Positions 1 to 54,651 of a stretch of 54,651 nucleotides of DNA are shown one piece after another. Position 1 is the stretch's first letter. Each line of letters begins with the position of its first letter. The stretch is taken from positions 1-54,651 of the IMG/VR virus record IMGVR_UViG_3300032240_000649, one strand, 5' to 3'. This DNA is from a virus (taxonomy: Duplodnaviria; Caudoviricetes). The position numbers were made by a program, and so were the translations under genes. The notes under the pieces were generated by a model that saw only the letters and a program-made list of their open reading frames with translations, searched no databases and was not told the DNA's origin.

Positions 1-123
1 GCAACCGCGACATCTTGTACGGTGCGTTGGGATACCGCCAGCTTCCATCACGGGAGACCATGAGCGGTCTGTACACCAACAGCCTTGGTGGTGTTGAAAA
101 CAACCCCATGACTATGGCCCGGC
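1..123. repeat. Terminal direct repeat, left copy (circular assembly overlap)
   Basis: Bases 1-123 are identical to 54529-54651, and a reading frame runs through the join. Confidence 0.97.
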
Positions 124-911
124 CGCTGATGGATTTCCCCACCGGTGGTGGCGGATTTATGGCCCCACAGTCACGCAAGACCATGGACGCTGTCGAACAC
201 TTCCGCGCCTTCCAAGACGCCCAAGAAGCTGGCGCATACAACTTGCCCAACACCATGAAGGGCGTCAAAGGCAAGAACTCCATCATGTTTGATGCCCGCA
301 GCACCAACCCCGACAAGTTTAAAGACCCGACAGCGGCCGTTGAGCCAAACGCCCAACAATTGACTGACATCGATGCACTCATCCGCCGATTGACCCCAGA
401 GGGCAAAGACGTGGACTTTGGCGTGTCGGCCACTAACCGTGGCGTGGTTGTGTTCCCGTTTGACCCAACCATGAACTCCAAGGACGCCAACAAATTCCTG
501 AACAAGCTCAAGAAGGAAGTGCCAAAGATTTACCCGTCGTCGCCAGAAAAAGCCATGACAACCACAGGCTACATGCCCGGTATTGGTAAGCGTGGCGAGT
601 ATGGGCCACTGTCTACCATGCCGTACAGCGGCGAGGCGACCAGCGACCTGCTGCGCCACTTCTCTGAGCTGCCGCAATCGGTGTCGGAAAACCTAAGCGA
701 ATCCGAATGGGTTAGAAACCAGATTCGCGAAAAGGCGCTGCGTGATTCGCTCATGGGCGGCACACGCGGTGACATTCAAGAGTCGCGCCGCTTCTTTAGT
801 GAGGCGGATTGGCCAAAAGCAGTCAGCATGATCCGCGAGGGCATGACGCCCGCCGCTGCACTTGCTGCACTTGGCTACAGCGCCAGCTCCATGGCTGGAG
901 AGCGCGAATGA
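1..911 (+). CDS. C-terminal part of the 1325-aa polyvalent protein starting at 51462
   Basis: The listed ORF 15..911 is in the same frame as the unterminated frame from 51462 (position 15 equals 54543). Stop TGA at 909-911. Confidence 0.9.
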   Translation, partial: NRDILYGALGYRQLPSRETMSGLYTNSLGGVENNPMTMARPLMDFPTGGGGFMAPQSRKTMDAVEHFRAFQDAQEAGAYNLPNTMKGVKGKNSIMFDARSTNPDKFKDPTAAVEPNAQQLTDIDALIRRLTPEGKDVDFGVSATNRGVVVFPFDPTMNSKDANKFLNKLKKEVPKIYPSSPEKAMTTTGYMPGIGKRGEYGPLSTMPYSGEATSDLLRHFSELPQSVSENLSESEWVRNQIREKALRDSLMGGTRGDIQESRRFFSEADWPKAVSMIREGMTPAAALAALGYSASSMAGERE

Positions 912-1175: not shown

Positions 1176-3710
1176 ATGGCTACAGAATTTCCAATAGACC
1201 AAGAATACAACCGATTTGTTGGTGGGCAACCACAGGACCAAGACGAGGAAGTCGCGGTCGACATGCCCGACATGGACGATTCTGAGCTGGAAGAGCTGCC
1301 CGACGGGTCTGTCGTGGTTAAGCTTGACACCAAGGGGCCGATGGAAGACGAAGACTTCTACGCCAACCTTGCCGAGAGCGACCACATCAACCCGCTTGAC
1401 ATCGACGGCTTGGCCTTGCGCTACATCGAGCTGGTCGAAAAGGACAAGAACGCCCGCAAACAGCGCGACAAACAGTACGAAGAGGGCATCAAGCGCACCG
1501 GCATGGGCAATGACGCGCCCGGTGGAGCCAACTTCAACGGCGCATCCAAGGTGGTTCACCCCGTAATGGCCGAGGCCTGCATTGATTTTGCGTCCCGCGC
1601 CATCAAAGAGATGTTCCCGCCAGACGGCCCAACGAAAACCAAAATCTTGGGCGACGTCACAGAGGACAAAACCGTCATTGCCGAGCGCAAATCGGATTTC
1701 ATGAACTGGCAGCTCACCGAGCAAATCGAGGAATTCCGCGACGAGCAAGAGCAAATGCTCACACAGCTCCCGCTGGGTGGCTCGCAGTACATCAAGCTCT
1801 GGTACGACGAGAAGAAGCGCCGCCCCTGTGCGCAGTTTTTGCCCATCGACAACGTGCTTTTGCCCTACGCCGCAGGAAACTTCTACACTGCGCAGCGTTT
1901 TACTGAAGTTGACGACATTTCTGACTTTGAATTCAAGCAGCGCGTGGCTGCCGGTCTGTACCGCGACACCGCATTGACCCGCGCCACCATGGACCCCGAG
2001 ATGACGGCGGCCCAAAAGGCGACAAACAAGGTCGAAGGCAAGTCAGAAAACGACAATGACGACGGTTTGCGCCGCGTCTATCACGTCTACACATGGCTCC
2101 AGCTTGACGACGACCCCGTTACCAAGGGCGAGCTGGCCCCGTACATCCTGATGATTGACGATCTGTCGTCAGAAGTCATCGGCCTGTACCGCAACTGGGA
2201 AGAAGGCGACGAAACAATGACCAAATTGGACTGGATCATTGAGTTCAAGTTTATTCCTTGGCGCGGTGCATACGCCGTCGGCCTGCCACAGCTCATTGGA
2301 GGCCTCTCAGCGGCCCTTACAGGCGCTTTGCGGGCCTTGCTGGACTCTGCCCACATTAACAACGCTGCAACGCTCCTGAAGCTCAAGGGCGGCAAGATTT
2401 CTGGCCAGTCCCAAGAGGTCGAAGTCACGCAGGTTGTGGAAATTGAGGGCGCTCCCGGTGTGGACGACGTGCGCAAAATCGCCATGGCCATGCCGTTCAA
2501 CCCGCCATCGCCCGTTTTGTTCGAGCTTTTGGGCTGGTTGACCAACGCAGCCAAGGGCGTCGTTACCACCGCCGAGGAAAAGATCGCCGACGTCAACAGC
2601 AACACCCCAGTTGGCACGACTCAGGCGCTGATCGAGCAGGGCGCTGCTGTTTTCTCGTCCATTCACGCCCGTTTGCACGAGTCTCAGGGCCGCGTGCTCA
2701 AGGTTTTGAGCCGAATCAACCGTTGGTATCTCGACGACATGCGTCGCGGCGAGGTGGTGGAAGATCTGGACATCAAACGCGAAGATTTTGCTCGCGTGAC
2801 CGACGTTATTCCGGTCTCTGACCCGCACATCTTCAGCGAAACCCAGCGTATGGCCCAAACCCAAGCGGTTATGGCCATCATGGACAAGAATCCCGAGCTT
2901 TTCAACAAGCGTGCGGTGATTCAGCGCTTCCTAAAGCAGATCAAAGTGCCCGGCATCAACGAAATCATGACCGACGTGCCGCCACCCGTCAAAATGGACT
3001 CGGCCAACGAGAACGTGGCCATGGCCATCGGTCAGGCAGCGTTTGCGTACCCCGAGCAGGACCACCTTGGTCACATTCAGGCGCACTTGGACTTTGCAAA
3101 GAGTCCGATCTTTGGTGGCAACCCCATCATTGCGCCAGCGTACCTGCCCAAGGCCGTGGAACACATCAAGCAGCACCTTGTTTTGTGGTATTTAAACCGC
3201 ATGAACGGCTACGTTCAGAAGTCTTTGGGCGAGAAGCTGCCGGACTACGACTTGGCCAGCGATCCCAAGGCCGTTGACAAGCTGTTTGCGCTGGCATCTC
3301 AGCACGTCGAGCTGGACGCGGACCAAACGCTCAAAGGCATCATGCCTGTGGTGCAGCAGTTGGTTGCTGGCTTGAAGCAATTCCAGCCTCAGCCGCCAAT
3401 GACGCCGGACGCCAAGGTTCTGCTGGACACCAGCATGGCCGAGACCCAACGCCGTACCAATCGCGACCAAGCCGAATTGCAGCTCAAGGACAAAGAGCTG
3501 GCAGCCAAGATCCAAATGGACATGGCCGACTTGCAACAACGCCAGCAGCGCGACATGGAAGAGATGCAGTTGCGTCTGGCCATCGCCATGGGCGACAACG
3601 AAATGAAGGAACGCATCGAAACAGCCCGCCTAACGCGAGATGCTGCCAAGCTCAATTTCGAGCAAAGCAAGGCTGTACCAACCACAGGAGGCCAATATGG
3701 CAACGAGTGA
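1176..3710 (+). CDS. Portal protein (P22-like, long C-terminal coiled coil)
   Basis: 844 aa, downstream of terminase and first in the head block. Has portal-like segments (HPVMAEACIDF, YAVGLPQLIGGL, TPVGTTQALIEQG) and a Gln-rich helical tail. Confidence 0.85.
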   Translation: MATEFPIDQEYNRFVGGQPQDQDEEVAVDMPDMDDSELEELPDGSVVVKLDTKGPMEDEDFYANLAESDHINPLDIDGLALRYIELVEKDKNARKQRDKQYEEGIKRTGMGNDAPGGANFNGASKVVHPVMAEACIDFASRAIKEMFPPDGPTKTKILGDVTEDKTVIAERKSDFMNWQLTEQIEEFRDEQEQMLTQLPLGGSQYIKLWYDEKKRRPCAQFLPIDNVLLPYAAGNFYTAQRFTEVDDISDFEFKQRVAAGLYRDTALTRATMDPEMTAAQKATNKVEGKSENDNDDGLRRVYHVYTWLQLDDDPVTKGELAPYILMIDDLSSEVIGLYRNWEEGDETMTKLDWIIEFKFIPWRGAYAVGLPQLIGGLSAALTGALRALLDSAHINNAATLLKLKGGKISGQSQEVEVTQVVEIEGAPGVDDVRKIAMAMPFNPPSPVLFELLGWLTNAAKGVVTTAEEKIADVNSNTPVGTTQALIEQGAAVFSSIHARLHESQGRVLKVLSRINRWYLDDMRRGEVVEDLDIKREDFARVTDVIPVSDPHIFSETQRMAQTQAVMAIMDKNPELFNKRAVIQRFLKQIKVPGINEIMTDVPPPVKMDSANENVAMAIGQAAFAYPEQDHLGHIQAHLDFAKSPIFGGNPIIAPAYLPKAVEHIKQHLVLWYLNRMNGYVQKSLGEKLPDYDLASDPKAVDKLFALASQHVELDADQTLKGIMPVVQQLVAGLKQFQPQPPMTPDAKVLLDTSMAETQRRTNRDQAELQLKDKELAAKIQMDMADLQQRQQRDMEEMQLRLAIAMGDNEMKERIETARLTRDAAKLNFEQSKAVPTTGGQYGNE

Positions 3711-6552: not shown

Positions 6553-7467
6553 ATGGCCGCTCCAATGCGCAGTACGGACTTTCGCTCAATCGTTGAGCCT
6601 ATTCTCAACGAGTGTTTTGACGGAGTCTATGACCAACGTACCGATGAATGGTCGCGAGTTTTCCGCGAGCAAGACGGTATTCCCCGCAACTACCACGAAG
6701 AACCCGTCCTGTACGGTTTTGGCGCTGCTCCTCAGTTGCCTGACGGCACTCCCGTCAGCTACCAGCAGGGCGGCGTGCTGTTCCTCCAGCGCTATGTGTA
6801 CAACGTGTATGGCCTAGCCTTCGCGTTGACCAAAGTGTTGGTTGAGGACGGCGACCATATCCGTATCGGTCAGGTCTATGCTCGTCACTTGGCTCAGTCT
6901 CTCATCGAGACCAAAGAGACTTTGTGCGCGAACATTTTGAACCGCGCGTTCAACAGCAGCTACCCCGGTGGCGACGGTGTGTCTTTGATCAACACCGCTC
7001 ACCCCATCGTGAACGGCACTTTCAGCAACCAGTTGGCAACTTCTGCCAACCTGTCCCAGACTTCTTTGGAGCAGATGCTGATTCAGATCCGTCAAGCTGT
7101 CGACAACAACGGCAAGAAGATTCGTTTGGTGCCCCGCCAATTGGTGGTCGCCCCCGGCAACGTCTTCCAAGCTGAAGTTTTGTTGAAGAGCGTTCTGCGT
7201 GCTGGTACTGCAAACAACGACCTGAACCCTGTCAAGTCTATTGGCTTGTTGGACGAAGGCGCTGCTGTTATCAGCCGTTTGACCAGCTCTACCGCATGGT
7301 GGGTTCAGACCGACGCTCCCGAGGGCATGAAGCTCTTGATGCGTCGCAAGCTGGAGAAGACCATGGAAGGCGATTTCGAGACCGACTCGATGCGCTACAA
7401 GGCTACCGAGCGTTACATCCCCGGATTCACTGATCCGCGTGCAATGTACGGTACTCCCGGCGTATAA
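6553..7467 (+). CDS. Major capsid protein (HK97 fold, Mu gpT-like)
   Basis: 304 aa; GGDGVSLINTAHP, LVVAPG, EGDFETDSMRYKATERY...DPRAMYG motifs; AGGAGG RBS; followed by a terminator. Confidence 0.88.
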   Translation: MAAPMRSTDFRSIVEPILNECFDGVYDQRTDEWSRVFREQDGIPRNYHEEPVLYGFGAAPQLPDGTPVSYQQGGVLFLQRYVYNVYGLAFALTKVLVEDGDHIRIGQVYARHLAQSLIETKETLCANILNRAFNSSYPGGDGVSLINTAHPIVNGTFSNQLATSANLSQTSLEQMLIQIRQAVDNNGKKIRLVPRQLVVAPGNVFQAEVLLKSVLRAGTANNDLNPVKSIGLLDEGAAVISRLTSSTAWWVQTDAPEGMKLLMRRKLEKTMEGDFETDSMRYKATERYIPGFTDPRAMYGTPGV

Positions 7468-8529: not shown

Positions 8530-9612
8530 ATGGGTCAATTCAAACCAATGGTCAAAATGATGACCACAGAGCCTTCAGTTGAACTGAAGCTCAAAAAAGG
8601 TGGCAAGGTAGCCAAGAAGGCCGATGGCGGCATGATGGGTGCTCCTATGGGCGCTTCTGATGGCCTGCCCCCTGCTATGCCTGCCCGTGGTGGCATGATG
8701 GGCGCTGCGGCCCCCATGAAGCCTTCGCTGGCTATGCGTCGTCGCGCAATGAAGGGCTTGCCTGCTGGTGCTGGCCCCGCTGGTCCAGTTGGCGGCGCTG
8801 CTCAAATGCAGCCCCCAATGGGCGCTCCTAGCGGCATGCCTGCTATGAAAAAGGGCGGCAAGGCTGAAGGCGGCAAGATGGACATGGCGCAAGACAAGGC
8901 CATGATCAAGAAGGCCTTCAAGCAGCACGACATGCAAGAGCACAAAGGCGGTAAAGGCACTTCTTTGAAATTGAAGAAGGGCGGCAAGATGATGAAGTTT
9001 GCAACTGGCGGCGCAATCCCCAGCGAAACAACTTCTGGTTCGCCTGCTACAACCATCATGCACCAAGCCAAGCCTGACAACGCTCCAGCAAAAACTGGTG
9101 GCGTCAAGAACGGCAACGGCGGCGGCTTCAAGACGGGCGGCAAGATCAAGAAGATGGCCACTGGTGGCGTCGTCAAAGGTCAAGCTGGCTACGCTACTGG
9201 CGGTGCAATTCCTTCTGAGACCACTTCTGGCAGCTACGCAACCACTGAGATGCATTCGGCCAAACCTGACAATTCACCTGCCAAAACAGGCGGCGTGAAA
9301 GACGGCAATGGCGGTGGCTACAAGCGCGGAGGGTCTGCGTCAAAAAAAGCCTACGCGGCGGGGGGTACTGTTGATTCAGGTCGTCCCGTCGCGATGCCTC
9401 AAGGTCGCAAACCAATCCCCAAACCTGTAGAGATCAACGAACTCGCTGGCACCTACAAGAAGGGCGGAATGGTAGCTCCCGGCAATCGTAAATTGCAGGC
9501 AATCTCCGATAAAGAGAACGCGCCTGCTATGCGTGCAGCCAAAGCAATGAGCAACGAAAAGTACGGCCCAGCCAGTACGATGAAGCTCAAAAGAGGCGGC
9601 ATGGCTTGTTGA
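8530..9612 (+). CDS. Basic low-complexity protein with many xxGG motifs and an internal duplication
   Basis: 360 aa, rich in K/G/M/A. The ATGGAIPSETTSGS...AKPDNxPAKTGGVKxGNGGG unit occurs twice. AGGAGG RBS. Confidence 0.85.
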   Translation: MGQFKPMVKMMTTEPSVELKLKKGGKVAKKADGGMMGAPMGASDGLPPAMPARGGMMGAAAPMKPSLAMRRRAMKGLPAGAGPAGPVGGAAQMQPPMGAPSGMPAMKKGGKAEGGKMDMAQDKAMIKKAFKQHDMQEHKGGKGTSLKLKKGGKMMKFATGGAIPSETTSGSPATTIMHQAKPDNAPAKTGGVKNGNGGGFKTGGKIKKMATGGVVKGQAGYATGGAIPSETTSGSYATTEMHSAKPDNSPAKTGGVKDGNGGGYKRGGSASKKAYAAGGTVDSGRPVAMPQGRKPIPKPVEINELAGTYKKGGMVAPGNRKLQAISDKENAPAMRAAKAMSNEKYGPASTMKLKRGGMAC

Positions 9613-25874: not shown

Positions 25875-26356
25875 ACGCAACAGGCATCCACCCCGTCAGC
25901 TCCAAGGAGCACATGCTCAAGCCCACCGACATTTTTGCGGTGGCTGCGCACGAGTACAAGCAAGGCATTGAAAACTGCACCGCTGCTGCAAAAAAATATC
26001 ACGTCTCGCCTGAGCGTTTGTCGTACTCAATCATGATTCAAGAGTACAGCGATCCACGCTTGATTCGTATTCGCGAAGGCAACACCTTGTTCACGATTGC
26101 AGCGATGCCGCACCGTGTTGGCTATGTCCGCAGCTACAACGGCGACACGGCAGACAACTTTATTGAAAACATGATTGTGTTTAATCAAGCAGCTCGCAAG
26201 ATGGGTTTTGACGTTTTGGTTGCGCACACCTCGCCTGACATTGTTCGGGCGCTAAAGCTCTCGTTAAGAAAGCACAAAATCAAGGGCATCAAATCAAACT
26301 TTGATTCCTCACAAAATATGTTTGCGATCACCACTGGTGAACCAAGGGGTGAATGA
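25871..26356 (+). CDS. Hypothetical protein (possible GNAT-like/T7 gp13-position assembly protein)
   Basis: ATGA coupling; alpha/beta pattern; lies just before the ejection genes. An alternative start at 25913 has AAGGAG. Confidence 0.55.
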   Translation: MNATGIHPVSSKEHMLKPTDIFAVAAHEYKQGIENCTAAAKKYHVSPERLSYSIMIQEYSDPRLIRIREGNTLFTIAAMPHRVGYVRSYNGDTADNFIENMIVFNQAARKMGFDVLVAHTSPDIVRALKLSLRKHKIKGIKSNFDSSQNMFAITTGEPRGE

Positions 26357-32274: not shown

Positions 32275-32276
32275 CC

Positions 32277-33323
32277 ATGGCATTAACTCAAGGATCGCCG
32301 CTGCCCGATATTACGCAAACCACAACGCGTACCGATCAGGCCCCCGATTACTACACCAATTATTTGTCCGGCTTGTCGCAGGCCGGGCAAACTGCCATGG
32401 CTCGCTCGCCGACTCAGTCGGTGGCCGGTTACGACCCCTTGCAGGTCATGGGCTACAACAACCTGCCTGCTGCAACAGAGTCGTACAAAACCGGGCTGAC
32501 GGCCGCTCAAAACACCGCAGCACAGGCAGCTCAGGGTATTACGCCTGAGCGCATCAATGCTTTGATGAACCCGTACACCACCAACGTGGTGGACGAGATG
32601 GCTCGCCTGTCCCAGCAGAACGTGCAACGCAACTTGCTGCCCACCATGAAGGCTGGTTTTGTCGGCACTGGTGGCATGGGCAGCCAACGCTACGCTGGCG
32701 CTCTTGGGCAGTCCATGGCGGACATCCAAGCCGGTTTGACGGGCCAACAGTACGGCGCATTATCAAAAGGCTACAGCGAGGCTCTGAAGGGCGCTTTGGA
32801 TGAGGCCCAACTGCAAAACCTAGCCGCTGGCACTCAGGGCAAGCTTGCGCAGCAAGAGCTGGACATGGGGTTAACCGGTGCCGGTGCTTTGACCAAGGCC
32901 GGTGCGGAGCGTCAGGCGTACCAACAAAGTCTACTCGACGCTCCCTTGAAAACGGCGACAGCATCGTCAGGACTCATGCGGGGCTACACCGTGCCGCAGT
33001 CGCAGGTCGAAAAGTTCGTGGGGCCAAAGGCTGGCTCTTACGGCACGTCGGACCTGTCAAACATTCTTGGCGTGTTGTCGGTGCTTGGAAGCGCCGCAGG
33101 CGGCAAGGGCCTTTCAACTGTGGCAACCGCTGGTGGCGACTTGATCAACTGGCTCAAAGGCGGCGGTGGCGGTGGCAACCAAGACCTTTTTGGCAATTTT
33201 AAAATTGACCCCAACGAATTTACCGGCGGCACAAATGCAAACGGCGTGCCTGTTTATTGGGACACAGCCACCGGCAAATACTACGGGACTGACGGCAAAG
33301 AAGTTCCTGTGACTGGAGATTGA
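32277..33323 (+). CDS. Internal virion/ejection protein
   Basis: Q/A/G-rich; MNPYTTNVVD motif; position after the giant protein. Confidence 0.7.
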   Translation: MALTQGSPLPDITQTTTRTDQAPDYYTNYLSGLSQAGQTAMARSPTQSVAGYDPLQVMGYNNLPAATESYKTGLTAAQNTAAQAAQGITPERINALMNPYTTNVVDEMARLSQQNVQRNLLPTMKAGFVGTGGMGSQRYAGALGQSMADIQAGLTGQQYGALSKGYSEALKGALDEAQLQNLAAGTQGKLAQQELDMGLTGAGALTKAGAERQAYQQSLLDAPLKTATASSGLMRGYTVPQSQVEKFVGPKAGSYGTSDLSNILGVLSVLGSAAGGKGLSTVATAGGDLINWLKGGGGGGNQDLFGNFKIDPNEFTGGTNANGVPVYWDTATGKYYGTDGKEVPVTGD

Positions 33324-33324
33324 T

Positions 33325-35199
33325 ATGTCAGAAAAGACGCAATCAGCCAGTTATTTGCCGGGCACTGACCCGGACATCGTCGAGGCCAACCGCCGCTATC
33401 AAGAGGCGCTGGACACGCTCACGCAATCGCTGGACACCCGCAAGAACCGGTACTTTGATCCGGTCATGCTGGCCATGGCTCAGGGCTTCTTGGCTCCCAC
33501 CCAGAGCGGCAGCTTTGGTGAATCGTTAGGCAACGTCGCTGGTAAGGTCGGACCTGCCGAAGCGGCTGCCATGAAAGAGCAGCAAGACATCGCCCAGCAA
33601 AAGCTTGGCGTGGCCACGCAAGGCCTTGAGCTTCAGCGCTTGAAGTCACGCGACGCCGAGCTGGCCAAGTACCTTGGCGAAGGCCCCACAGCAGGCCCAC
33701 AGGCGGCCCCTGTAGCCGGTCCGAAGGCTGGCCCCTTGTCTGGTGCTTTGGCAGGCCCTGCGGCCGCTCCTGAAGCTCCTCCTGCTGGTCCTTTGAGCGC
33801 CACCGGCCCGGCACAGACTGGTGCAGTGACCGTTCAACCACCTCCGGGCGCGATTAAAGTAACCCAAAATGATGGAACAGGCGCTGGCGCATTACCTGAG
33901 CCTGTCAAAACAATCACTCCGCAGGCGGTCAGCAAAGGCCCGTTGTCGGCTGGCGACAAGCCTGTCGGTTTTGAGAATGTTGAGGGAATTCAGGTTGCGC
34001 CTCCAAACTCCAACTTCATGTCGGCCCGTGACTACATTCGTTTGAACCGGTTCGACAAGACCAAGTCACCCGGCGACCTGATCAAGGAAGGCCAAGAGAT
34101 CGAGCAAAAGCGCTACCGCGACAAAGAAGGTGGCGTGCTGGATCTGGCCACCGGCAAATATTACCAGTACCCCACCGGCAAGACCGAGCAGATCCAGCTC
34201 TACGGTTATCCCGGCACTTACAACGTCGACGCACGCACGGCTGCGCAACTCAGCCTGTTTGCGGCAAACAACGACCCAAGGTATCACGATCTTGCGGAGC
34301 GCGTGGTCAAGGGTCCTGAGAAGCGCAAGCCTGAAGGTGAAGGCAAGCCTGCCGAAGGTGGCAAGGAAACCGAAGGCGGCAAGCCTGCCGGTGGCGGCAA
34401 ACCAGCAGAACCAGCTCGTATGAAGTCCAAAGAAGAGCTGGAGCTGGAGCAGGAAAAGAAAAAGAAGATGCAGGAAGCTGAGGTGTCTTCTGAGATTGAA
34501 GCTCGCAAAGACTTCAACCAGCGCAGGAAAGACGCTGACGAGACCATTACCACGGCCAACGTGTTCCGCCGCTTTGCGACCGATCCAAAAGCCAAAGACA
34601 TGTTTGGTATTTTGAACAACGACAAGGTCATGTCAGGTGTTGCCACGCTCGTGCGTGATGGCATCGGGCTGCCCGGCTTCACAGTGGGCACCAAGTCGAT
34701 TGAGGACATCATGCGCAACGCTGGTTTGAATGCGGCGGACCAAGCCAAGTACCGCACGTTCTTGATGTACGCAACGCAAATGCAATTGCAGCAATCCAAG
34801 TACATGAAGGGCGCGGTGTCAGACTTTGAGCAGCGCTTGATGGCCAACGCTGGTATCACCAACCAAGACACACCAGAGTCGATTCGCATCAAGGCCGACT
34901 TGTTGACGCGTCGTGCTCAGTTTGACCGCCGTGTAGCGAAGGCGTTCAAAGAGTCTAAGATGACCGCCGACGAGTTTTTGGATTCGGACAAGTACGACCA
35001 GATGCGCGACAAGTACAACGAGGACCTTTCGGACCTTGCGTCTGGCAGCAAGATTCTTGTTGCGCCTCCCAAGCCCGCCGCACCAGCAACAACTCCCGGA
35101 GCAGCGCCCGGGGCGGCACCCGGAGCCGGGCAACCAAGCGCCGGATTTATTCGTGACCCTGTGACTGGAGTGATCCGTCGCAAGAAGCCGGGGGAATAA
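33325..35199 (+). CDS. Internal virion/DNA transfer protein
   Basis: LAMAQGFLAPTQSGSFGESLG N-terminus, Pro/Ala linkers, KGAVSDFEQR motif. Confidence 0.7.
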   Translation: MSEKTQSASYLPGTDPDIVEANRRYQEALDTLTQSLDTRKNRYFDPVMLAMAQGFLAPTQSGSFGESLGNVAGKVGPAEAAAMKEQQDIAQQKLGVATQGLELQRLKSRDAELAKYLGEGPTAGPQAAPVAGPKAGPLSGALAGPAAAPEAPPAGPLSATGPAQTGAVTVQPPPGAIKVTQNDGTGAGALPEPVKTITPQAVSKGPLSAGDKPVGFENVEGIQVAPPNSNFMSARDYIRLNRFDKTKSPGDLIKEGQEIEQKRYRDKEGGVLDLATGKYYQYPTGKTEQIQLYGYPGTYNVDARTAAQLSLFAANNDPRYHDLAERVVKGPEKRKPEGEGKPAEGGKETEGGKPAGGGKPAEPARMKSKEELELEQEKKKKMQEAEVSSEIEARKDFNQRRKDADETITTANVFRRFATDPKAKDMFGILNNDKVMSGVATLVRDGIGLPGFTVGTKSIEDIMRNAGLNAADQAKYRTFLMYATQMQLQQSKYMKGAVSDFEQRLMANAGITNQDTPESIRIKADLLTRRAQFDRRVAKAFKESKMTADEFLDSDKYDQMRDKYNEDLSDLASGSKILVAPPKPAAPATTPGAAPGAAPGAGQPSAGFIRDPVTGVIRRKKPGE

Positions 35200-35200
35200 C

Positions 35201-36775
35201 ATGGCAAACAAGAACGTCGAAGCTTTTATCACCACCTACGGGCCTGTTGCACAGCAGGTCAGTAAAGAGATCAACGTCGACCCCAACGTGTTGGTTGGCC
35301 AGTGGGGCATGGAGAGCCGCTGGGGCCAGTCCGAGATGGCCAAGAAATACAACAACGTGGGCGGCATCAAAGATTTTAGCGGTACTGGCCACGAGGCCAA
35401 AGACAACAAGACCGGAGCTGTGGACAAGTACGTCAAGTTTGAGGACCCCGAGGTCTTCGGTATGTATTACGCCGACCAGATCAAGCGCAACTTCCCCAAC
35501 GCCGTGAACACCGGCCCTGATGTGGGCGCGTTCACTCGCGGCTTGGCGTCTGGCAAAAAAGGTTCGTACTTTGGAAACACGCCGATTGAGGAATACCAAT
35601 CGGCCTTGACCGGTGCTCAAAACGCCATCCCGCAAGACAAGCAGTTGCCTTTTGAGCCGACAGCAAAGCCTGAAGGTGAAACCAAGCAAGAGGGCGAAGG
35701 CGACATGGTTACGGCTGATGCGCCGCCACCCCCACCACCTCCGCCAGAGGGCGACAAGTCTGGTGCAAGCCCCGGTGAGCGCTTCCTTGGTGCTGCTCTT
35801 GGTACGGCTGCTGGCACGGTGTCTACCGGTGCTCAGGCCTACGGCGCTCAAAAAACATCCAGCGCGGTCAAACGTGCAGGGCTTGAAGAGGCCGCCAGAA
35901 TCGCAGCCCAGCAAAAGGCAGGTGTGGTCCCTCCTCCCGCAGGTGGCTTACCGGGTTCCACTCCCGGTGCAGCGCCCGGTCAAAGCATTATGCGCCAGCC
36001 CATTCCATCGGGCGGCCCTGACGCTGGCCGCATGGCCCCGGGTCAAACCGGCAACATGGTTTACAACTATGGCAAGGCGGCAAAACTGACTGACATTGAA
36101 GCTGGCCGCGCTTTGGATATGACCAAGGAAGCTGGTGGTGTTCATGACCTGACCACGCAGCGCCGAGAAAATCTGAACAAAATTCAGACCATGTTCCCCG
36201 GCGAAAAGTATGTTGAGAACCCACGCTTTGGCGGCTTGATGACTTTGGACCAAGGCGTTGGCAGTGGCCCTCGCGCCAGCTACAAGGTGCAAGGCCCAGT
36301 GTCAGATCTGCCCCCCGGCCACATGCCCGGCCCAGCAGCGCCAGCGGCACCCGGCACATTGGTACAGATACCAAAGCCCCAGCCCGTGCCAACCACGCCC
36401 CCGCCACCTACAATGGGCGCACGCATGATGTCTGGGCTTGACTCAGTCAACAGCATGTTCAAAAACATGATGCGGCCTGTGACGACCGCCGTGGGCACCG
36501 TTGGCAAGTACGCCTTGCCGCCCCTTGCCGGTCTTTCAGCAGGCCTTGACGTGGCTGAGATGGCGCACGAGTACGACAAGCCTCAAGACCAACGCGACTA
36601 CACCAAGCTGGGATTGAAGGGCGCAAGCCTGATTGGTGGCGGCCTGTCAATGTTCCCGCCCACTGCGCCGATTGGAATTCCGTTGTCGCTTGGCGCGTCT
36701 GCATACCAAGCTTACCGAGAAGACCCGGAATTCTTCAAGCAAAAAATGAAGGAGTACACCGGGTACTCCCCCTAA
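35201..36775 (+). CDS. Virion protein with N-terminal GH73/FlgJ-like glucosaminidase domain
   Basis: FITTYGPVAQQV...VLVGQWGMESRWGQS...NNVGGIK; Pro-rich linkers; C-terminal hydrophobic helices. Confidence 0.78.
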   Translation: MANKNVEAFITTYGPVAQQVSKEINVDPNVLVGQWGMESRWGQSEMAKKYNNVGGIKDFSGTGHEAKDNKTGAVDKYVKFEDPEVFGMYYADQIKRNFPNAVNTGPDVGAFTRGLASGKKGSYFGNTPIEEYQSALTGAQNAIPQDKQLPFEPTAKPEGETKQEGEGDMVTADAPPPPPPPPEGDKSGASPGERFLGAALGTAAGTVSTGAQAYGAQKTSSAVKRAGLEEAARIAAQQKAGVVPPPAGGLPGSTPGAAPGQSIMRQPIPSGGPDAGRMAPGQTGNMVYNYGKAAKLTDIEAGRALDMTKEAGGVHDLTTQRRENLNKIQTMFPGEKYVENPRFGGLMTLDQGVGSGPRASYKVQGPVSDLPPGHMPGPAAPAAPGTLVQIPKPQPVPTTPPPPTMGARMMSGLDSVNSMFKNMMRPVTTAVGTVGKYALPPLAGLSAGLDVAEMAHEYDKPQDQRDYTKLGLKGASLIGGGLSMFPPTAPIGIPLSLGASAYQAYREDPEFFKQKMKEYTGYSP

Positions 36776-44326: not shown

Positions 44327-44613
44327 CCACCATTGCAGAGCGCAAGCACATGAGCGCGGTGGCCGAGCTGGGCTGCGCCGTGTGCCGCCGTATGGGCTAC
44401 CCGGGAACACCGGCCGAGATCCATCACAAAAGGGCCGGAATAGGCCTTGGAAGACGCGCAAGCCACTTCGAGGTCATACCGCTATGCCCAGAGCACCATC
44501 GCGGCTCTACGGGCCTGCACGGCCTTGGGACCAAGGGATTCCCAAAGCACTGGGGTTTCACTGAGGACGACCTGCTGGAAGACGTGCGGGTGTTGCTTAG
44601 GGAAAACACCTAG
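44323..44613 (+). CDS. Ref/DUF968-like HNH-type nuclease
   Basis: LGCAVC...AEIHH...VIPLCPEHHRG..GLH. Confidence 0.8.
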   Translation: MTTIAERKHMSAVAELGCAVCRRMGYPGTPAEIHHKRAGIGLGRRASHFEVIPLCPEHHRGSTGLHGLGTKGFPKHWGFTEDDLLEDVRVLLRENT

Positions 44614-44718
44614 AAAATATTTTTGCAAAAGGTGTTGACAAGGTTTAAGTTGGTGTTAAACTTCATACATCGACACAGCAATACCGCACAGTCGATTACA
44701 GCGAAGGACAGTGAAATG
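44598..44718 (+). promoter_or_regulatory. Cassette head 1: boundary motif, promoter and leader
   Basis: TAGGGAAAACACCTAG, AAAATATTTT, TTGACA(44635)-16-TAAACT(44657), CAGCGAAGGACAGTGAAATG. Confidence 0.85.
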
Positions 44719-45813: not shown

Positions 45814-45980
45814 GCGAGACCACCATGTCCGAGTACATCAAAGGGTTCGACGCCGGTTACGGCTATGTGCTGGTCGAGATCGAGCGCTGGATCAAGCAGC
45901 ACGAGCACGAGCCGCGAGTCACCCAACCCATCGAGACCCTGCTGGCACACCTGAAAATGGAAGGTAGGGAAAGTACCTAG
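45810..45980 (+). CDS. 56-aa hypothetical protein (MSETTMSEYIKGFDAG...GREST), not in the ORF track
   Basis: Translated by hand; GGAGG RBS; stop lies inside the next boundary motif. Confidence 0.7.
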   Translation: MSETTMSEYIKGFDAGYGYVLVEIERWIKQHEHEPRVTQPIETLLAHLKMEGREST

Positions 45981-46081
45981 AAAATATTTTGGTTGGAAGT
46001 GTTGACACCGTTTAAGTTGGTGTTAAACTTCCAATCACTGCAATAAGCAGGTAACAGCGAAACGAAAGCGAGATCATTATG
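45965..46081 (+). promoter_or_regulatory. Cassette head 2
   Basis: TAGGGAAAGTACCTAG, AAAATATTTT, TTGACA(46002)-16-TAAACT(46024); spacer nearly identical to head 1. Confidence 0.85.
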
Positions 46082-49255: not shown

Positions 49256-49867
49256 ATGCCAGAAACCGCCGCAAAGCCACCAAAACGAGCCACAGCAGCT
49301 CAAACGCCCAAGGCTAAGGCCAAGGGTGCAGCAACGCCCGCGAGCGCCCCAAAAGCCCAAAAGAAGATGGGAGCACCAAAAGGATCGGGATCAAAGTACA
49401 CCGAACAGATAGCAGACCAGATCTGTGACCTCGTTTCCAATGGAGTCAATCTAAGAGCGGTATGCCGTATGCAGGGTATGCCAGCATGGCGGACGGTTTA
49501 CGATTGGGTGGTGGCAAAGCCTGACTTTGCCGCACGCCTCGCGCGCGCCAGAGAGATGGGTTACGACGCCTTGGCAGAGGAGGCCCTCGAAATCAGCAAC
49601 ACGCCGGTGATGGGCCAGAAGCAGGTGATGGGTGACAACAAGACCTACACCACGGTCGAGGACATGCTTGGCCACCGCAAGCTCCAGATCGAGACGCGCC
49701 TCAAGCTGTTGGCCTGCTGGGACCCTTCCAAGTACGGCAGCCGCACCACGCTGGCCGGTGACGCCAAGAACCCGGTGGTGATCGACGCGGCCAAGGAAGC
49801 CAAGGACCTGCTCGACGCCTTACTGGCCAACGTCGAGCTGACCAAGCAGGCCAAGGTCAATGGCTGA
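49256..49867 (+). CDS. terS: Terminase small subunit (Sf6/P22-like)
   Basis: SKYTEQIADQICDLV..G..LRAVC...MPAWRTVYDW; RKLQIETRLKLLACWDPSKYG; directly upstream of terL. Confidence 0.88.
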   Translation: MPETAAKPPKRATAAQTPKAKAKGAATPASAPKAQKKMGAPKGSGSKYTEQIADQICDLVSNGVNLRAVCRMQGMPAWRTVYDWVVAKPDFAARLARAREMGYDALAEEALEISNTPVMGQKQVMGDNKTYTTVEDMLGHRKLQIETRLKLLACWDPSKYGSRTTLAGDAKNPVVIDAAKEAKDLLDALLANVELTKQAKVNG

Positions 49868-51278
49868 GGTCATCGACTTCTTAAAAGACCCCAAGGTTCA
49901 GAAGAGCCTAGACATTGTCGACCCTTTTTACCGCCTTGCATGGGCATGGCGCATGACGTGGCTCAAGAAGCAGCACGACCACCAGACCCTACCACCGGGC
50001 GAGTGGTGGAGCATCTGGCTGCTGCTGGCCGGTCGTGGAGCCGGTAAAACGCGCACAGCGGCCGAGCAAATCGCGTGGTGGGCCTACACCATGCCCGAGA
50101 CCCGTTGGCTCGTTGCAGCCCCTACCAGCGCCGACGTGAAGGCAACCTGCTTTGAGGGTGACTCCGGCCTGCTGAACATCATCCCGGCCCCGCTGGTGGC
50201 CGACTACAACAAGCAGTACCACGAGCTGCGCCTGCACAACGGCAGCCTGATCAAGGGCATCCCGGCGTCCGAGCCTGAGCGCTTCCGGGGGCCGCAGTTC
50301 CATGGGGGCTGGTGCGACGAGCTGGCTGCGTGGGACTACCTGCAAGAGGCGTGGGACCAGATCCAGTTCGGCATGCGACTGGGTAAGCGCACGCGCCTGA
50401 TCTGCACCACCACGCCCAAGCCCAAGGACCTGATCATCGAGCTGATAGGGCGCGAGGGCGACGACGTGGTGATGACCACGGCCTCGACCTACACCAACCT
50501 CGACAACCTGTCCGACAACTTCCGCAAACAGATCTTGTCCTATGAGGGCACGACGCTGGGGCGGCAGGAGATTTACGCCGAGATCATCGACCCTGAAGAG
50601 GGCGGCATCGTCAAGCGCGACATGTTCAAGCTGTGGCCAGCCGGGAAAGAGTTCCCGCGCTTCGAGTACATCCTGCAAAGCTATGACGTGGCCACGTCTG
50701 AGAAGGTCCAGAACGACCCGACGGCCTGCATCACGTTCGGCGTGTTCAAGCCTGTGGACGGTCCGATGTCGGTCATGGTGATCGACTGCTGGCAAGAGCG
50801 CATGCAGTACCCGGACCTGCGCCCCAAGGTCATCGACGAGTATGAGACCGTCTTCGGCGAGGGCAAGGACCGCAAGCGCGTGGACCTGCTGCTGATTGAG
50901 GACAAGAGCGCGGGCATCAGCCTGATCCAAGACCTGCAACGCGCCCACCTGCCCGTGCGTGCTTACAACCCGGGGCGGGCCGACAAGACCCAGCGCCTGA
51001 ACATCGTGTCCAACATCATCGCCCGTGGCCGGGTGTGGATACCCGAGAGCGACAAGCGCAAGGGCTACGTCAAGGACTGGGCCGAGGGCTTCGTGAGCCA
51101 GATCTGCTCGTTCCCCGAGACCACCCACGACGACCTTGTGGACGCCTGCACGCAGGCCCTGCGCTACCTGCGCGACGCTGGCTGGCTGGACATTGACCCG
51201 CCGCCCAATGACGCGTGGGACGAGGATGACTACGCCGACACCGGCCGAGTAAGGAGGGTAAACCCGTATGCAATCTGA
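49860..51278 (+). CDS. terL: Terminase large subunit
   Basis: AGRGAGKT Walker A, WCDE Walker B, TTTP coupling motif, SYDVA...DPTA, HDDLVDACTQAL nuclease motifs. Confidence 0.95.
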   Translation: MAEVIDFLKDPKVQKSLDIVDPFYRLAWAWRMTWLKKQHDHQTLPPGEWWSIWLLLAGRGAGKTRTAAEQIAWWAYTMPETRWLVAAPTSADVKATCFEGDSGLLNIIPAPLVADYNKQYHELRLHNGSLIKGIPASEPERFRGPQFHGGWCDELAAWDYLQEAWDQIQFGMRLGKRTRLICTTTPKPKDLIIELIGREGDDVVMTTASTYTNLDNLSDNFRKQILSYEGTTLGRQEIYAEIIDPEEGGIVKRDMFKLWPAGKEFPRFEYILQSYDVATSEKVQNDPTACITFGVFKPVDGPMSVMVIDCWQERMQYPDLRPKVIDEYETVFGEGKDRKRVDLLLIEDKSAGISLIQDLQRAHLPVRAYNPGRADKTQRLNIVSNIIARGRVWIPESDKRKGYVKDWAEGFVSQICSFPETTHDDLVDACTQALRYLRDAGWLDIDPPPNDAWDEDDYADTGRVRRVNPYAI

Positions 51279-51461: not shown

Positions 51462-54400
51462 ATGGCTGATGAAATTCGGGCGCTAGACCCAACGATCCGC
51501 GAGCGGCTGTCGTCCGGGCTTCAGCAGGGCATGGAGGGTCTGGGCATGGACCGCTACAAGGCCCGCCAACGAGCGCAGACGGTTATGGGCGGCGAGAGCA
51601 GCAACCTGCCAATGGGCATGGGCATTGCCGACTTCGTGCCCTTCATTGGGACCACCATGGGCGCTGAGGAAGGCGCTCACGATCTGGGCAAGGCCTACGA
51701 CGCGGCCAAGCGCGGCGACTACATCGATGCGGCGGCCAACACGGTCGGGGCTGCGGCAGGGCTGATCCCCGGCGCGGCAGGCACGGTCAAGGCAGGCAAG
51801 GCGGCCATCAAGAAGCTCAAGGCCATGGAGCTGCCCAAGCTAAAGCCAATCGAAACCGATTCGGTTCCCAAGCGCCAGTCATTGAAAGAGTGGCACGCAG
51901 CCGGTGGCGGCATACCGACCAGCCACAAGGACCGGGCGGACGTCTGGCATCAGAAGGTCCAGCGCTTTGCAGCCGGTGGCGAGGTCTACAACACCGTGCC
52001 CGACATGAGCGACGGCGGCGAGATCATCGACGGCCCGGCTTATGCCAAAGGCGGCGCGGTGACCAAGGTAGCCAAGGACGTCATCGAGGGCGTGGTCGAC
52101 GCCGTCAAGCCAATGGTCGACCGCATCAACATGCACTACAAGGACGTGACCAAGCGCATCCCCGAGCTGCAAGAAGGTGCCCAGAAGATCAAAGACGAGG
52201 AGATGACCCGCGCCCAATATGAGAAGCTGGTCAACAAGTACAAGCCCGTCAAGCCCTACGAATTCATTCCCAAGCCCGCGACCCGCGAGGAGGCCGTCAA
52301 CGCCCTGACGTCGGACAAGCGCGACCTGTACGGCACGCCATCGAGCATGCTCAATGCTGGCCATCCCGTGGGCTTGCGCCTTGACATCCCGGCCTACAGC
52401 GACCACGGCGTGTGGGTTCCGGCCATCCACCAGCAGGACGCTGGCTTTGGTGCTGGAGAGCGCATTGGGTACGAGAGCATCGCCTCGGTGCTGGACCCGC
52501 GCTTTGGCATGGTCGAGAAGGGCGCACTGAACATCGCCGCCGGTAAGCCCAAGGCCACCATTGCCACGATCAAGGGCAACTGGAACCCGATGGACCAAGA
52601 GGCCGCACTGGCCCGCGCCCAAGAGTACCTCGATCACCCCGAGTGGGCGCAGGTGGGCATGGACCCCGAGCGCCACAGCTACTTCTACGACCGCCGCACC
52701 ATGCAGCCCGTCGTAGGGGCCGAGGAGGCCATTCAAGTCGGCCCGCTGGTGCTGGCCCGCAAGCCGCAGTACGGCAACAAGAAGGACTACAAGTACGCCG
52801 GTGGTGGCGCGATCAAGCGCATGGCCAAGAGCGCAATCGAGAGCGCAGCCGAGGCCGCTGGCATGAAGGCTCCGGTCACCGCAGCCAAAGACCTGACGAC
52901 CCTGCAAGACTTCCACACGTCACTGGGTGACGAGGTCCGACGCCGCGCCACCGAAGCCAAGAAGCAAATGGACGCCTTCGACTACAAGTACGACAAGGGC
53001 CAGCGCGTGTTCACTGAGGACAGCGCCAAGAAAAACAGAGCGCCTTACGAGATCATTGAGCGCTACCGCCACGGCAACCAACTGATGTGGGAAGGCGAGC
53101 CGTGGAACAGCAAGAAGATCATGGACCCTGAGACGGGCAAGGCCAAGCGCACGCCATACGAGCCGGGCTACCGCGTCCGGGGCGAGATGGGCGAAATGAT
53201 TTTGCCCGAGACCGCCATCAAGGGCGACGTTGAAATGGCCGGTGGCGGTGCAGCCAAGAAGGGCGCAAAGGAAGTCATCGAGGCTGGCGTCAAGGGCGTC
53301 AAGAGGTTGCTGGGCATGGCCGATGAGGCACCCAAGGGCGTCGAGCCTATCGTGGTCCGCACCCCAGAAGAACGGGCCGTGATTGAGAAGTTTGGCCAGA
53401 AGCAAGAGCAAGAGGCCGCTCGACAGAAGAAGGTCGAGAAGATGGCCAGTGAGAGTGCAGGCCAAAGCCCAGAGGCACAAGCGGCAAAGCCCGCCAAGTC
53501 AAAGGGGCCGCGCACCAAGGTCGAGGCAGACACCTACCGCAAGATGGCCGAGAGCCAAGGCGACGAGGCCGTGCTCAAAGCAGCCCGCGCCGGTGAGCAC
53601 CTCAAGCCCACCAACACCGGTTACGTTGGCGCACCCCGCACCGTGACCAGCGGCCAAGGCCTTGGAGCCATGCGCCGTGGCATCGACAAAGACTTTGCCG
53701 ACTCGGTCGAGGCCGTCAAACTGGCAGACCCCGAGCGGCTGGGCACATGGTACGACCGTGCCAAGCAGGGCATCGCCGAGAGCGTCGAGCCGTATCAGCT
53801 CAACCGCGCATTGGAGCAGCACGGCGTCTACTCCGCTGGCGTCAGCCCCGAGTCAGAATTAGGGTTTGCCCTAAAGCATTTGAACAGCCGCGTGGCCGGT
53901 ATTCCCGAGATGGCCTACCGTGGCGCACCGATGCGCACGCTGGATGAGGCTGTAGCTGAGGGCCGCCCGGTCAAAATGGGCTTCAAGATCGGCGAGTACG
54001 CCAACAAGAACGACCCGCGCATTCCCAACGAGGGCCTGTTTGGCGTGAACGACTTCCGCCGCGCCCAAGGTATGGGCTACACCGACCCGCAGGGCAACCC
54101 GTGGAAGGCTGGCGTGTCCGAGACCATGCACCCGTTCATGGACGCCGAGACCGCCTTGCAGGTGGACCGCGCCAACAAAGCCGGGACCGGTGGCCGCACC
54201 GACTGGGCTGGCCCCCACATTCAAGAGGTGCCGTGGGTTTACGGCAAGGGCCAAGACCTGTACAGCCGGGGCAAGAAGGGCCGCTACGGTGGCGACGAGC
54301 TGGAAGGCATCAAATCGGCCCTGCAAGACGCAAACAACACCGCCCGCGACTACATGTACAAGCACGCAGCCACGGCCACGCACGAGGCCGTTCCCGGCGC

Positions 54401-54651
54401 AAGGCTGGGCCACGTCCGCCAAGTGTTTGACATGACGCCCGAAGAGAAGCTGGAGTACGGCAGGCGCGGCCGCTGGGACTTGCCATCGCCAGAGTCAGCA
54501 CTGAACGAATACCCGGACGTGGGCGCAAGCAACCGCGACATCTTGTACGGTGCGTTGGGATACCGCCAGCTTCCATCACGGGAGACCATGAGCGGTCTGT
54601 ACACCAACAGCCTTGGTGGTGTTGAAAACAACCCCATGACTATGGCCCGGC
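51462..54651 (+). CDS. Polyvalent multidomain protein, N-terminal part (continues through the join to 911; 1325 aa in total)
   Basis: AAGGA RBS then ATG 51462 (MADEIRALDPTIRERL...). The frame is open to the window end and in phase with 15..911; the ORF track omits it because it has no stop in the window. Confidence 0.9.
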   Translation, partial: MADEIRALDPTIRERLSSGLQQGMEGLGMDRYKARQRAQTVMGGESSNLPMGMGIADFVPFIGTTMGAEEGAHDLGKAYDAAKRGDYIDAAANTVGAAAGLIPGAAGTVKAGKAAIKKLKAMELPKLKPIETDSVPKRQSLKEWHAAGGGIPTSHKDRADVWHQKVQRFAAGGEVYNTVPDMSDGGEIIDGPAYAKGGAVTKVAKDVIEGVVDAVKPMVDRINMHYKDVTKRIPELQEGAQKIKDEEMTRAQYEKLVNKYKPVKPYEFIPKPATREEAVNALTSDKRDLYGTPSSMLNAGHPVGLRLDIPAYSDHGVWVPAIHQQDAGFGAGERIGYESIASVLDPRFGMVEKGALNIAAGKPKATIATIKGNWNPMDQEAALARAQEYLDHPEWAQVGMDPERHSYFYDRRTMQPVVGAEEAIQVGPLVLARKPQYGNKKDYKYAGGGAIKRMAKSAIESAAEAAGMKAPVTAAKDLTTLQDFHTSLGDEVRRRATEAKKQMDAFDYKYDKGQRVFTEDSAKKNRAPYEIIERYRHGNQLMWEGEPWNSKKIMDPETGKAKRTPYEPGYRVRGEMGEMILPETAIKGDVEMAGGGAAKKGAKEVIEAGVKGVKRLLGMADEAPKGVEPIVVRTPEERAVIEKFGQKQEQEAARQKKVEKMASESAGQSPEAQAAKPAKSKGPRTKVEADTYRKMAESQGDEAVLKAARAGEHLKPTNTGYVGAPRTVTSGQGLGAMRRGIDKDFADSVEAVKLADPERLGTWYDRAKQGIAESVEPYQLNRALEQHGVYSAGVSPESELGFALKHLNSRVAGIPEMAYRGAPMRTLDEAVAEGRPVKMGFKIGEYANKNDPRIPNEGLFGVNDFRRAQGMGYTDPQGNPWKAGVSETMHPFMDAETALQVDRANKAGTGGRTDWAGPHIQEVPWVYGKGQDLYSRGKKGRYGGDELEGIKSALQDANNTARDYMYKHAATATHEAVPGARLGHVRQVFDMTPEEKLEYGRRGRWDLPSPESALNEYPDVGASNRDILYGALGYRQLPSRETMSGLYTNSLGGVENNPMTMAR
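54529..54651. repeat. Terminal direct repeat, right copy
   Basis: Identical to 1-123. Confidence 0.97.

Follow-up and report, generated by a model that had tools for sequence, protein, structure and literature searches.

A candidate large polyvalent protein with a constant C-terminal core and exchangeable N-terminal cassettes, encoded between the terminase and portal genes of a tailed phage

Introduction

Large polyvalent proteins are multidomain phage chains encoded beside portal and terminase genes; they shuffle a shared set of domains and are predicted to be packaged and injected, as described in the main text of Iyer et al. (2017; PMC5512222). They are thought to be a phage payload that is injected ahead of gene expression, and few have been studied. 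One of them, phi24B gp47 (2811 amino acids, aa), which bears LPD domains, is abundant in virion proteomics and a proposed ejection protein (10.64898/2026.04.10.717836), and gp25 of phage PTXU04 (2198 aa), a putative polyvalent protein, is needed for infection (PMC11879866). The MuF/SPP1 gp7 prophage toxins are also encoded in the head module, beside the portal gene, and also combine constant and variable parts. Here we describe a 1325-aa protein encoded between the genes for the large terminase subunit (terL) and the portal in IMG/VR virus record IMGVR_UViG_3300032240_000649, positions 1 to 54,651. This whole stretch of 54,651 nucleotides (nt), below called the window, represents a tailed phage, and almost every gene in it lies on the plus strand.

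The protein is probably a large polyvalent protein that consists of a constant core preceded by optional N-terminal cassettes, and that would be loaded into the head and enter the cell with the DNA. Its relatives carry families named in the main text of Iyer et al. (ART-PolyVal, LPD22, LPD23, LPD38, InPase, RelA/SpoT and MuF_C), they join several unrelated domains from the shared pool, and the gene lies among virion genes of a phage with a portal and a terminase. It differs from the proteins in that text in that Pfam finds no polyvalent domain in it, in its constant C-terminal core of 730 aa, which Pfam and PHROGs lack, and in a fixed Gly-Gly (GG) motif at cassette boundaries; the words ‘linker’ and ‘glycine’ occur 0 times in the main text of PMC5512222, and the titles and abstracts listed by literature searches do not mention a recurrent junction motif. 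The core or one of the cassettes (M2, below) might be listed under an LPD number in the domain tables of Iyer et al. Compared with the MuF toxins the polarity is reversed, with a variable N-terminus and a constant C-terminus, and there are several cassettes rather than one. The domains of phi24B gp47 and PTXU04 gp25 are others again (LPD5, LPD1, LPD38 and MuF-C). The protein fits the polyvalent proteins as Iyer et al. describe them, and departs from them in its unannotated core, its polarity and its recurrent junction motif.

With one constant core, cassettes set off by a recognisable junction, and near-identical phages in which one cassette makes the difference, the family is a simple natural system for the rules by which cargo is attached and exchanged. 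The core is abundant in metagenomes yet absent from Pfam, PHROGs, NCBIfam and 50,697 GenBank phage records, and would be an unannotated component of the head or ejection module.

Results

One gene is read across the ends of the record

An open reading frame (ORF) opens with ATG at 51462 and runs off the end of the window, and the frame at 3..911 is open from the window start. Bases 1..123, the terminal repeat of the record, are identical to 54529-54651, hence the two translations share 40 residues, at the end of the first and the start of the second. The record is classed by IMG/VR as 100% complete, with direct terminal repeats. Because of this class and the 123-bp end repeat, the true reading joins 51462-54651 to 124-911 on a circle of 54,528 bp, giving 3978 nt, or 1325 aa and a stop. 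The first part (51462..54651, plus strand; supported by the ORF, third-position GC content and homology) encodes aa 1-1063 and the first base of codon 1064, and the second (124..911, plus strand; supported by the ORF and the match to P0156) encodes the rest of codon 1064 through aa 1325, with the stop at 909-911. P0156, an 823-aa protein from the homologue search, reads across the join without a break; 557/561 and 298/302 of its residues are identical to those of window aa 503-1325. Likewise, 1323-aa ORFs with the same module order lie internal to three contigs (L009, L011 and L012) and support the join. A first-pass annotation, made by a model from the letters and ORFs, had proposed one 1325-aa frame across the join and quoted a peptide from its N-terminus; the recircularised translation has this length and contains the peptide. 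The ORF between terL and portal is one real gene. Because the 123-bp repeat falls within it, the simplest reading of the repeat is that a circular or circularly permuted assembly overlaps itself there.

The C-terminal core is constant and the modules ahead of it are optional

Neither the 1325-aa protein nor its five segments had any match in Pfam, PHROGs or NCBIfam; Pfam was scanned with two halves at E ≤ 1 and with the five segments at E ≤ 10, although HMMER filters drop most matches above E ~0.1. A phmmer search of 1.84 billion representatives gave 2014 relatives at E ≤ 1e-3, with matches that fall into units: M2 (aa ~205-453), M3 (aa ~454-626), which was found in few proteins, and the C block (aa ~600 to the end). 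Among the phmmer matches listed, the C block occurs in proteins of ~290-1711 aa, the shortest of them fragments, and is usually C-terminal. These units agree with the module limits of the first-pass annotation (52080-52790, 52810-53230 and a large C-terminal block).

A word-indexed search with aa 600-1063 found 461 core-matching proteins. The best 120 of these are 76-99% identical and 716-1772 aa long, and their precomputed Pfam annotation includes PF18760 in 21, PF14284 in 6 and PF18838 in 1. In IMG/VR, 114 stretches encode a relative of the core; 80 loci were kept, and the 69 complete ORFs taken from them (734-1772 aa) always carry the C block at the C-terminus, preceded by 0-1051 aa. Core-only forms of 734 aa occur, and the order found in the window, N-L-M2-M3-C, occurs in 4/69. 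Thus, the ~730 C-terminal residues (aa 597-1325) are the constant core of the family, and the swappable parts are all N-terminal. The core is encoded at 53250..54651 (plus strand; aa 597-1063) and continues at 124-908, as defined by homology, alignment and structural model. The first-pass annotation had listed this C-terminal block among the parts of a cassette of swappable effectors; the block stands as a unit, but it is the invariant part of the family rather than a further cassette.

The cassettes of the relatives come from a pool that, by homology, is common to Pfam-defined polyvalent proteins. Pfam matches at E ≤ 0.01 were found in 11/34 complete ORFs scanned, with ART-PolyVal in 4 and LPD23 in 3 (one below the cut-off in each case), PcfJ in 3 and a weak ASCH in 1. 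Among 19 relatives typed with Pfam, ART-PolyVal was found in 5, LPD38 in 4, PcfJ in 3, LPD22 in 2, LPD23 in 2 and InPase in 1; RelA_SpoT, MuF_C and Phage_L5_gp82 fell below cut-offs, and 6/19 had no family. LPD22, LPD38, InPase and MuF_C are borne by more distant, M2-bearing giants. The polyvalent character and modularity proposed in the first-pass annotation therefore hold for the relatives, whose domain content is not invariant. Because the modules of the window protein have no Pfam match of their own, its membership rests on module homology.

Four kinds of sequence precede the core in the window, all on the plus strand. The N module (aa 1-147; 51462..51902) carries the conserved motif G-x-A-D-x-x-P-x-x-G followed by a Gly/Ala-rich stretch, is mostly helical in a low-confidence model, and is present in 63/154 core-bearing relatives. 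The L region (aa 148-199; 51903..52058) consists of four tandem GG motifs spaced 8-20 aa apart with no domain between them. M2 (aa 200-449; 52059..52808; delimited by homology) has an invariant RLDIPxY as well as invariant H, K, D and R residues; it is found in proteins of 230-7099 aa, with no fixed place along the chain in those of 250-7099 aa, and also as a stand-alone gene. M2 is probably a distant member of PF25735 (Phage_L5_gp82), to judge from weak, sub-cut-off matches in 14/17 M2 homologues (best E 1.3e-4) and from the precomputed annotation of 14/72 stand-alone M2 homologues; the M2 of the window itself differs in having no match to PF25735 at E ≤ 1. An M2 profile had 0 matches among PDB sequences, the ESM Atlas gave no usable match, and no paper concerning L5 gp82 stood among the titles and abstracts listed by a literature search. 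M3 (52809..53249; delimited by the model and by comparison with P0157, below) is predicted to be a small beta-barrel. A whole-protein AlphaFold model of P0001 had a mean predicted local distance difference test score (pLDDT) of 59, with N, L and M2 below 50 because the mixed alignment misplaced rows containing only M2.

A separate observation concerns M2 in Roseobacter phages CRP-207 and CRP-9 and in ctYwJ313, where an M2-bearing protein of 945-994 aa without a Pfam match is encoded directly after the portal, not before it (L001 5695-8532, which is CRP-207 gp58, and L002 5563-8547). The CRP phages are the nearest cultured handles on M2.

Cassettes are exchanged at glycine-glycine junctions

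The window protein has GG sites at aa 148-150, 172-173, 185-186, 197-198, 447-449 and 594-596, starting at nt 51903, 51975, 52014, 52050, 52800 and 53241. The first-pass annotation had placed five of them to within a few bases; that at aa 148 is additional. Across 152 family proteins the pattern hydrophobic-A-x-G-G occurs 264 times, vs. 54 ± 9 in 50 shuffles, with the consensus [M/F/Y/H]-A-[K/A]-G-G-x-V. In a low-confidence model, each motif is followed by a basic amphipathic helix that touches nothing. When the pre-core regions of 154 proteins were cut at the motif, 291 segments fell into 83 clusters and 81 architectures, the last an upper bound inflated by proteins cut N-terminally on short contigs. 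The 4010 internal homology breakpoints, which are non-independent events, lie a median of 12 aa from a motif vs. 45 aa for random positions, and 47% vs. 20% fall within 10 aa of one.

Individual relatives show the exchange directly. P0157 is 98% identical to the window at aa 1-448 and 99% at aa 588-1063, lacks the 139 aa between (449-587), and reads ...YKYAEGG-EAH-MAGGG... at the junction. It lacks exactly the inter-motif segment; M3 therefore lies between two motifs, each of which belongs to its neighbour. P0003 is without N, L and M3, in P0004 another small module replaces M2, and in stand-alone M2 proteins the motif directly follows the domain. Cassettes are thus gained, lost and swapped at the GG junctions among otherwise near-identical phages, as the first-pass annotation had suspected for its modules.

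Among identical residues in 28 sequences, codon identity was 0.52-0.59 at the junctions vs. 0.38-0.63 in the flanks. Because it is not raised at the junctions, the motif looks to be selected at the protein level rather than being a conserved DNA linker. A DNA-level recombination linker was rejected on the same codon identities and on a repeat search that found no long repeat between junctions. An internal ribosome-binding site with a GTG start, hidden in K-G-G-x-V, was also rejected: the Gly codons are GGC/GGT, and the upstream Ala and hydrophobic residue would go unexplained. Mimicry of the GroES mobile loop was a weak idea only, since the Ala is out of register with the GroES loop, and the loop of the phage's own GroES-like protein has no GG.

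The strict form A-x-G-G also occurs elsewhere in the window, 7 times in P0153 (360 aa, basic and Gly-rich, with 20 GG in all; 8530..9612, plus strand) and 4 times in a 1973-aa ORF described below. In the metagenomic phage ctpbd312 it occurs 6 times in the P0153 homologue and 4 times in an unrelated 890-aa protein. Since P0153 carries it seven times, the motif is not confined to the polyvalent protein. P0153 may be an internal head or DNA-associated protein. Its motifs sit in ~45-aa repeats (e.g. YATGGAIPSETTSG...) without a family match, and the ctpbd312 homologue, 449 aa long with the same N-terminus, is encoded two genes after the capsid gene (L087 37301-38650).

Of the possible roles of the junction, we favour a flexible hairpin-plus-helix connector at which cassette exchange is tolerated, then a proteolytic release site, and lastly a tether to DNA or capsid. 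The presence of the motif in mutually unrelated proteins (the polyvalent protein, the ctpbd312 890-aa protein, the P0153 family and the 1973-aa protein) gives rise to a more speculative idea, which we consider doubtful: hydrophobic-A-x-G-G-x-V with its basic amphipathic helix might be a portable signal of capsid-internal proteins, marking sites at which cargo is cut or is attached to DNA, capsid or portal. If so, cassettes could be loaded, pass along the tail as a thread and be set free singly, and a pair of such units around any domain would turn it into an exchangeable, injectable cassette. Should the junction act as a signal for loading or release, it could serve to direct chosen proteins into phage heads.

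The core is predicted to contain an enzyme-like helical domain

A model of P0156 (99% identity to window aa 503-1325), built with 64 homologues, had a pLDDT of 82.4 and a predicted template modelling score (pTM) of 0.79, with residues 130-820 confident. The model suggests a helical domain (aa 736-960; 53667..54341, plus strand; also supported by the alignment), two ferredoxin-like alpha/beta domains (aa 964-1208; from 54351, with the second half at 124..557, plus strand) and a C-terminal helical bundle (aa 1229-1318; 618..887, plus strand). In the 64-sequence alignment the invariant columns number 38, all of them within P0156 191-461 (window aa 693-963), a span that includes the helical domain. 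Many are charged, among them (P0156 numbering) R191, R236, E274, E297, D326, K340, K347, D349, D362, R364, H388, D392, E394, R401, E420, D430 and D461. Such a pattern is more what one expects of an enzyme or a specific ligand binder than of a passive scaffold.

The invariant K340, K347, D349, D362 and R364 lie in a helix-loop-helix (P0156 320-368), in which the stretch from K340 to D362 is followed by G-V-N-D-F-R, an arrangement that we take, reading by eye rather than from a structural alignment, to resemble the hairpin and catalytic Asp of HhH-GPD proteins. The weak likeness to HhH-GPD glycosylases (e.g. Tm1821, PDB 3n0u; EndoIII, MutY, OGG1, AlkA and Mag1) and to the queuine salvage enzyme DUF2419 consists of this HhH-like stretch and an invariant Asp ~15-22 residues later in G-V-N-D-F-R, set against the canonical pattern. 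The core differs from these proteins in its ~10% identity, the lack of a Pfam match, a middling Z score and the loss of the canonical G-phi-G hairpin. If the helical domain is truly glycosylase-like, the protein would be a virion-borne enzyme acting on DNA.

A Foldseek search of the PDB with the core model gave nothing at E ≤ 0.001, and PDB sequence searches gave nothing meaningful with a single sequence or with the core profile (ribosome recycling factor led, with E 0.095). The top BFVD matches, at E 7e-69 to 3e-18, are phage proteins that have not been characterised; behind them, at probability 1.0, rank proteins named as LPD-containing or as bearing RelA/SpoT, SleB, InPase or helicase domains. 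These matches suggest that core-like proteins form a broader class within the polyvalent proteins. Among 113 relatives without the core, LPD38-bearing ones included, its profile had no significant match, and so gave no link to a named LPD. One candidate for the helical domain, PF23802 (DUF7178), led in the ESM Atlas (29/30 nearest clusters, scores 0.94-0.95) and was then left unconfirmed, as its profile gave nothing in the window at E ≤ 10 and 0/16 shorter homologues carry it.

The gene adjoins virion or ejection genes in two genomic arrangements

In the window, terL (49860..51278, plus strand) lies upstream and the portal gene (1176..3710, plus strand), whose product is 47% identical to Caulobacter phage RW GP094c, downstream. 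The head module recurs in ctpbd312 (MW202545.1), whose terL is 66% identical, and in Caulobacter phages, RW for example, with its 47% identical portal. Since terL and portal have their relatives in Caulobacter and Roseobacter phages, freshwater or marine Alphaproteobacteria are the suggested source of a cultured member of the lineage. In ctpbd312 the terL-portal interval holds the 890-aa protein with four GG motifs (L085 8636-11308, MW202545.1), to which the core is unrelated by hhalign (probability 0.1), and in RW it holds only a tRNA-Val (L086 5248-5626, MK929790.1).

Flanks were compared at 39 loci with ≥1.5 kb on both sides. A window-like terL upstream and portal downstream are present in 25/39, and neither is present in 14/39. 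Flanking genes, many of them without annotation, were scanned in six of these 14 other-lineage loci. One (L084) has a DNA ejection protein and then an internal virion protein with an endolysin domain, one an endolysin-domain protein (L013), one a tail fibre (L063), two large proteins without annotation (L017 and L080), and one only a metallo-phosphoesterase and a replication initiation protein (L072); L034, also scanned, is outside the 14. The gene thus adjoins virion or ejection genes in two different arrangements.

Four large genes at 26353-36775 encode 1973, 348, 624 and 524 aa. The 1973-aa ORF (26353-32274, plus strand) has 0 matches in PHROGs and weak ones only in Pfam and NCBIfam; the other three follow it, and the 524-aa product has a glucosaminidase domain as well as similarity to SLT. 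Together they are probably an ejection or internal-core set. These four proteins and the 1325-aa protein contain no cysteine in 4794 residues, vs. 73/9606 in 28 other ORFs.

Discussion

In the proposed mechanism, the constant C-terminal ~730 aa would comprise an enzyme-like helical domain, probably DNA-binding and weakly HhH-GPD-like, followed by the two ferredoxin-like domains and the helical bundle. The N-terminal ~600 aa would be a string of optional cassettes (the N leader, the L5-gp82-like M2 and the small beta-barrel M3), each bracketed by hydrophobic-A-x-G-G-x-V and a basic amphipathic helix. The protein would be loaded into the head, or form part of the internal ejection-protein set, and enter the cell with the DNA. 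Inside the cell, the core would act on or hold DNA, and the cassettes would act early on host functions or defences. Gene context, composition and precedent are the grounds on which we infer that the protein is packaged and enters the host, that the core binds or processes DNA, and that the cassettes act on host functions.

Several observations weigh against this reading. The terL-portal interval is a variable slot that does not require the 1325-aa protein, because ctpbd312 has an unrelated 890-aa protein there and RW has none. The modules of the window protein itself fit no family of known function in Pfam, PHROGs or NCBIfam, and the core has no match among the 50,697 GenBank phage records, so there is no cultured phage for checking. 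An ordinary cytoplasmic enzyme could also show the strong conservation of charged residues seen in the core. Finally, the count of architectures is inflated, and the breakpoints are interdependent.

The junctions lend themselves to a different account, in which the protein is a polyprotein whose A-x-G-G sites are cut by a phage or host protease, at head maturation or after entry, so as to free the modules. It would have precedents in giant phages, whose ejection proteins are cleaved, and in adenovirus or African swine fever virus with their GG-X sites. The motif does stand at every module boundary and where stand-alone M2 proteins end, it is found again in further proteins that are probably internal (seven copies in P0153, six in its ctpbd312 homologue, four in the ctpbd312 890-aa protein, and also in the 1973-aa ORF), it appears to be kept at the protein level, its codon identity being no higher than that of the flanks, and the main text of Iyer et al. 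(2017; PMC5512222) proposes autoproteolytic processing of polyvalent proteins. We consider cleavage compatible with a polyvalent protein but unlikely. No protease was recognisable among the portal, GroES-like, scaffold-like, 180-aa, 190-aa and capsid proteins scanned; in the 180-aa protein His60 is invariant across 18 homologues but the cysteines are not, and the 1325-aa protein has neither a cysteine nor an HExxH. The adenain consensus has its hydrophobic residue at P4, not P5, which also counts against cleavage. The phage cleavage motifs in the titles and abstracts listed by a literature search were only those of the A-x-E type of giant phages. A purely structural role is a rather poor fit as well: here the protein would belong to an internal core or ejection conduit like T7 gp15/gp16, with variable N-terminal modules that adapt it to host envelopes rather than act as effectors. 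In other lineages the gene closes a series of large genes, among them those for an ejection protein and an endolysin-domain internal virion protein, the lack of cysteine is shared with the other large internal proteins of the window, and conduit formation has been proposed for phi24B gp47 (10.64898/2026.04.10.717836). However, the cargo of relatives includes conflict-system enzymes (the ADP-ribosyltransferase ART-PolyVal and PcfJ, with RelA/SpoT and pyrophosphatase in M2-bearing relatives outside the core family), core-only forms of 734 aa occur, and four internal-protein genes at 26353-36775, one of them with a glucosaminidase domain, already form a set of their own in the window.

It is quite improbable that the protein is a late, unpackaged cytoplasmic enzyme acting on DNA, glycosylase-like or base-modifying, that lies next to terL and portal by accident. 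Such an enzyme would account for the concentration of invariant charged residues in the HhH-GPD-like domain and for the empty slot in phage RW, but not for a gene that sits within virion clusters in two genomic arrangements, for structural matches in BFVD to polyvalent proteins, or for a cysteine-free composition like that of internal proteins. A polymorphic toxin of the MuF or pre-toxin TG (PT-TG) type is more improbable still and would surprise us greatly; the first-pass annotation had likened the N-terminus to PT-TG-type motifs. The gene does adjoin the portal, and the Gly-rich N-terminal motif looks PT-TG-like by eye. A preprint on PT-TG describes conserved Gly, Asp and Arg within 15 residues. 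The profile searches argue otherwise. No family was matched at E ≤ 10, neither PF14449 on aa 1-148 nor PF04233 on the five segments (nor at E ≤ 1 on the halves), so that the likeness to PT-TG was not supported, while the annotation's remark that it could recognise no MuF domain was borne out. Neither family is among the Pfam matches of the 34 complete relatives at E ≤ 0.01. Moreover, the variable part is N-terminal, not C-terminal, and the C-terminal toxin with an adjacent immunity gene that is typical of MuF proteins was not found: the C-terminus is conserved, and the next gene is the portal.

Other features of the window

Upstream of terL lies terS (49256-49867, plus strand). Downstream of the portal, the head module continues with a GroES/Cpn10-like protein (4018-4458, plus strand; Pfam E 1.2e-5), a charged scaffold-like protein (4455-5396), two small head-module proteins without an assigned family (180 aa, 5402-5944; 190 aa, 5967-6539) and a Mu gpT-like capsid protein (6553-7467), with tail genes after it. 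The GroES-like gene, between the portal and scaffold-like genes, is kept in the head modules of ctpbd312 and Caulobacter phage RW. A 67-nt element is present in two copies that are 85% identical (44598-44664 and 45965-46031), each with TTGACA and an A/T-rich hexamer downstream; these are probably repeated early promoters. Finally, a unit of ~125 nt is repeated in eight diverged copies, 60-72% identical to the reference copy, at 15676-17147, inside a 1323-aa tail-spike or virion structural gene (14321-18292).

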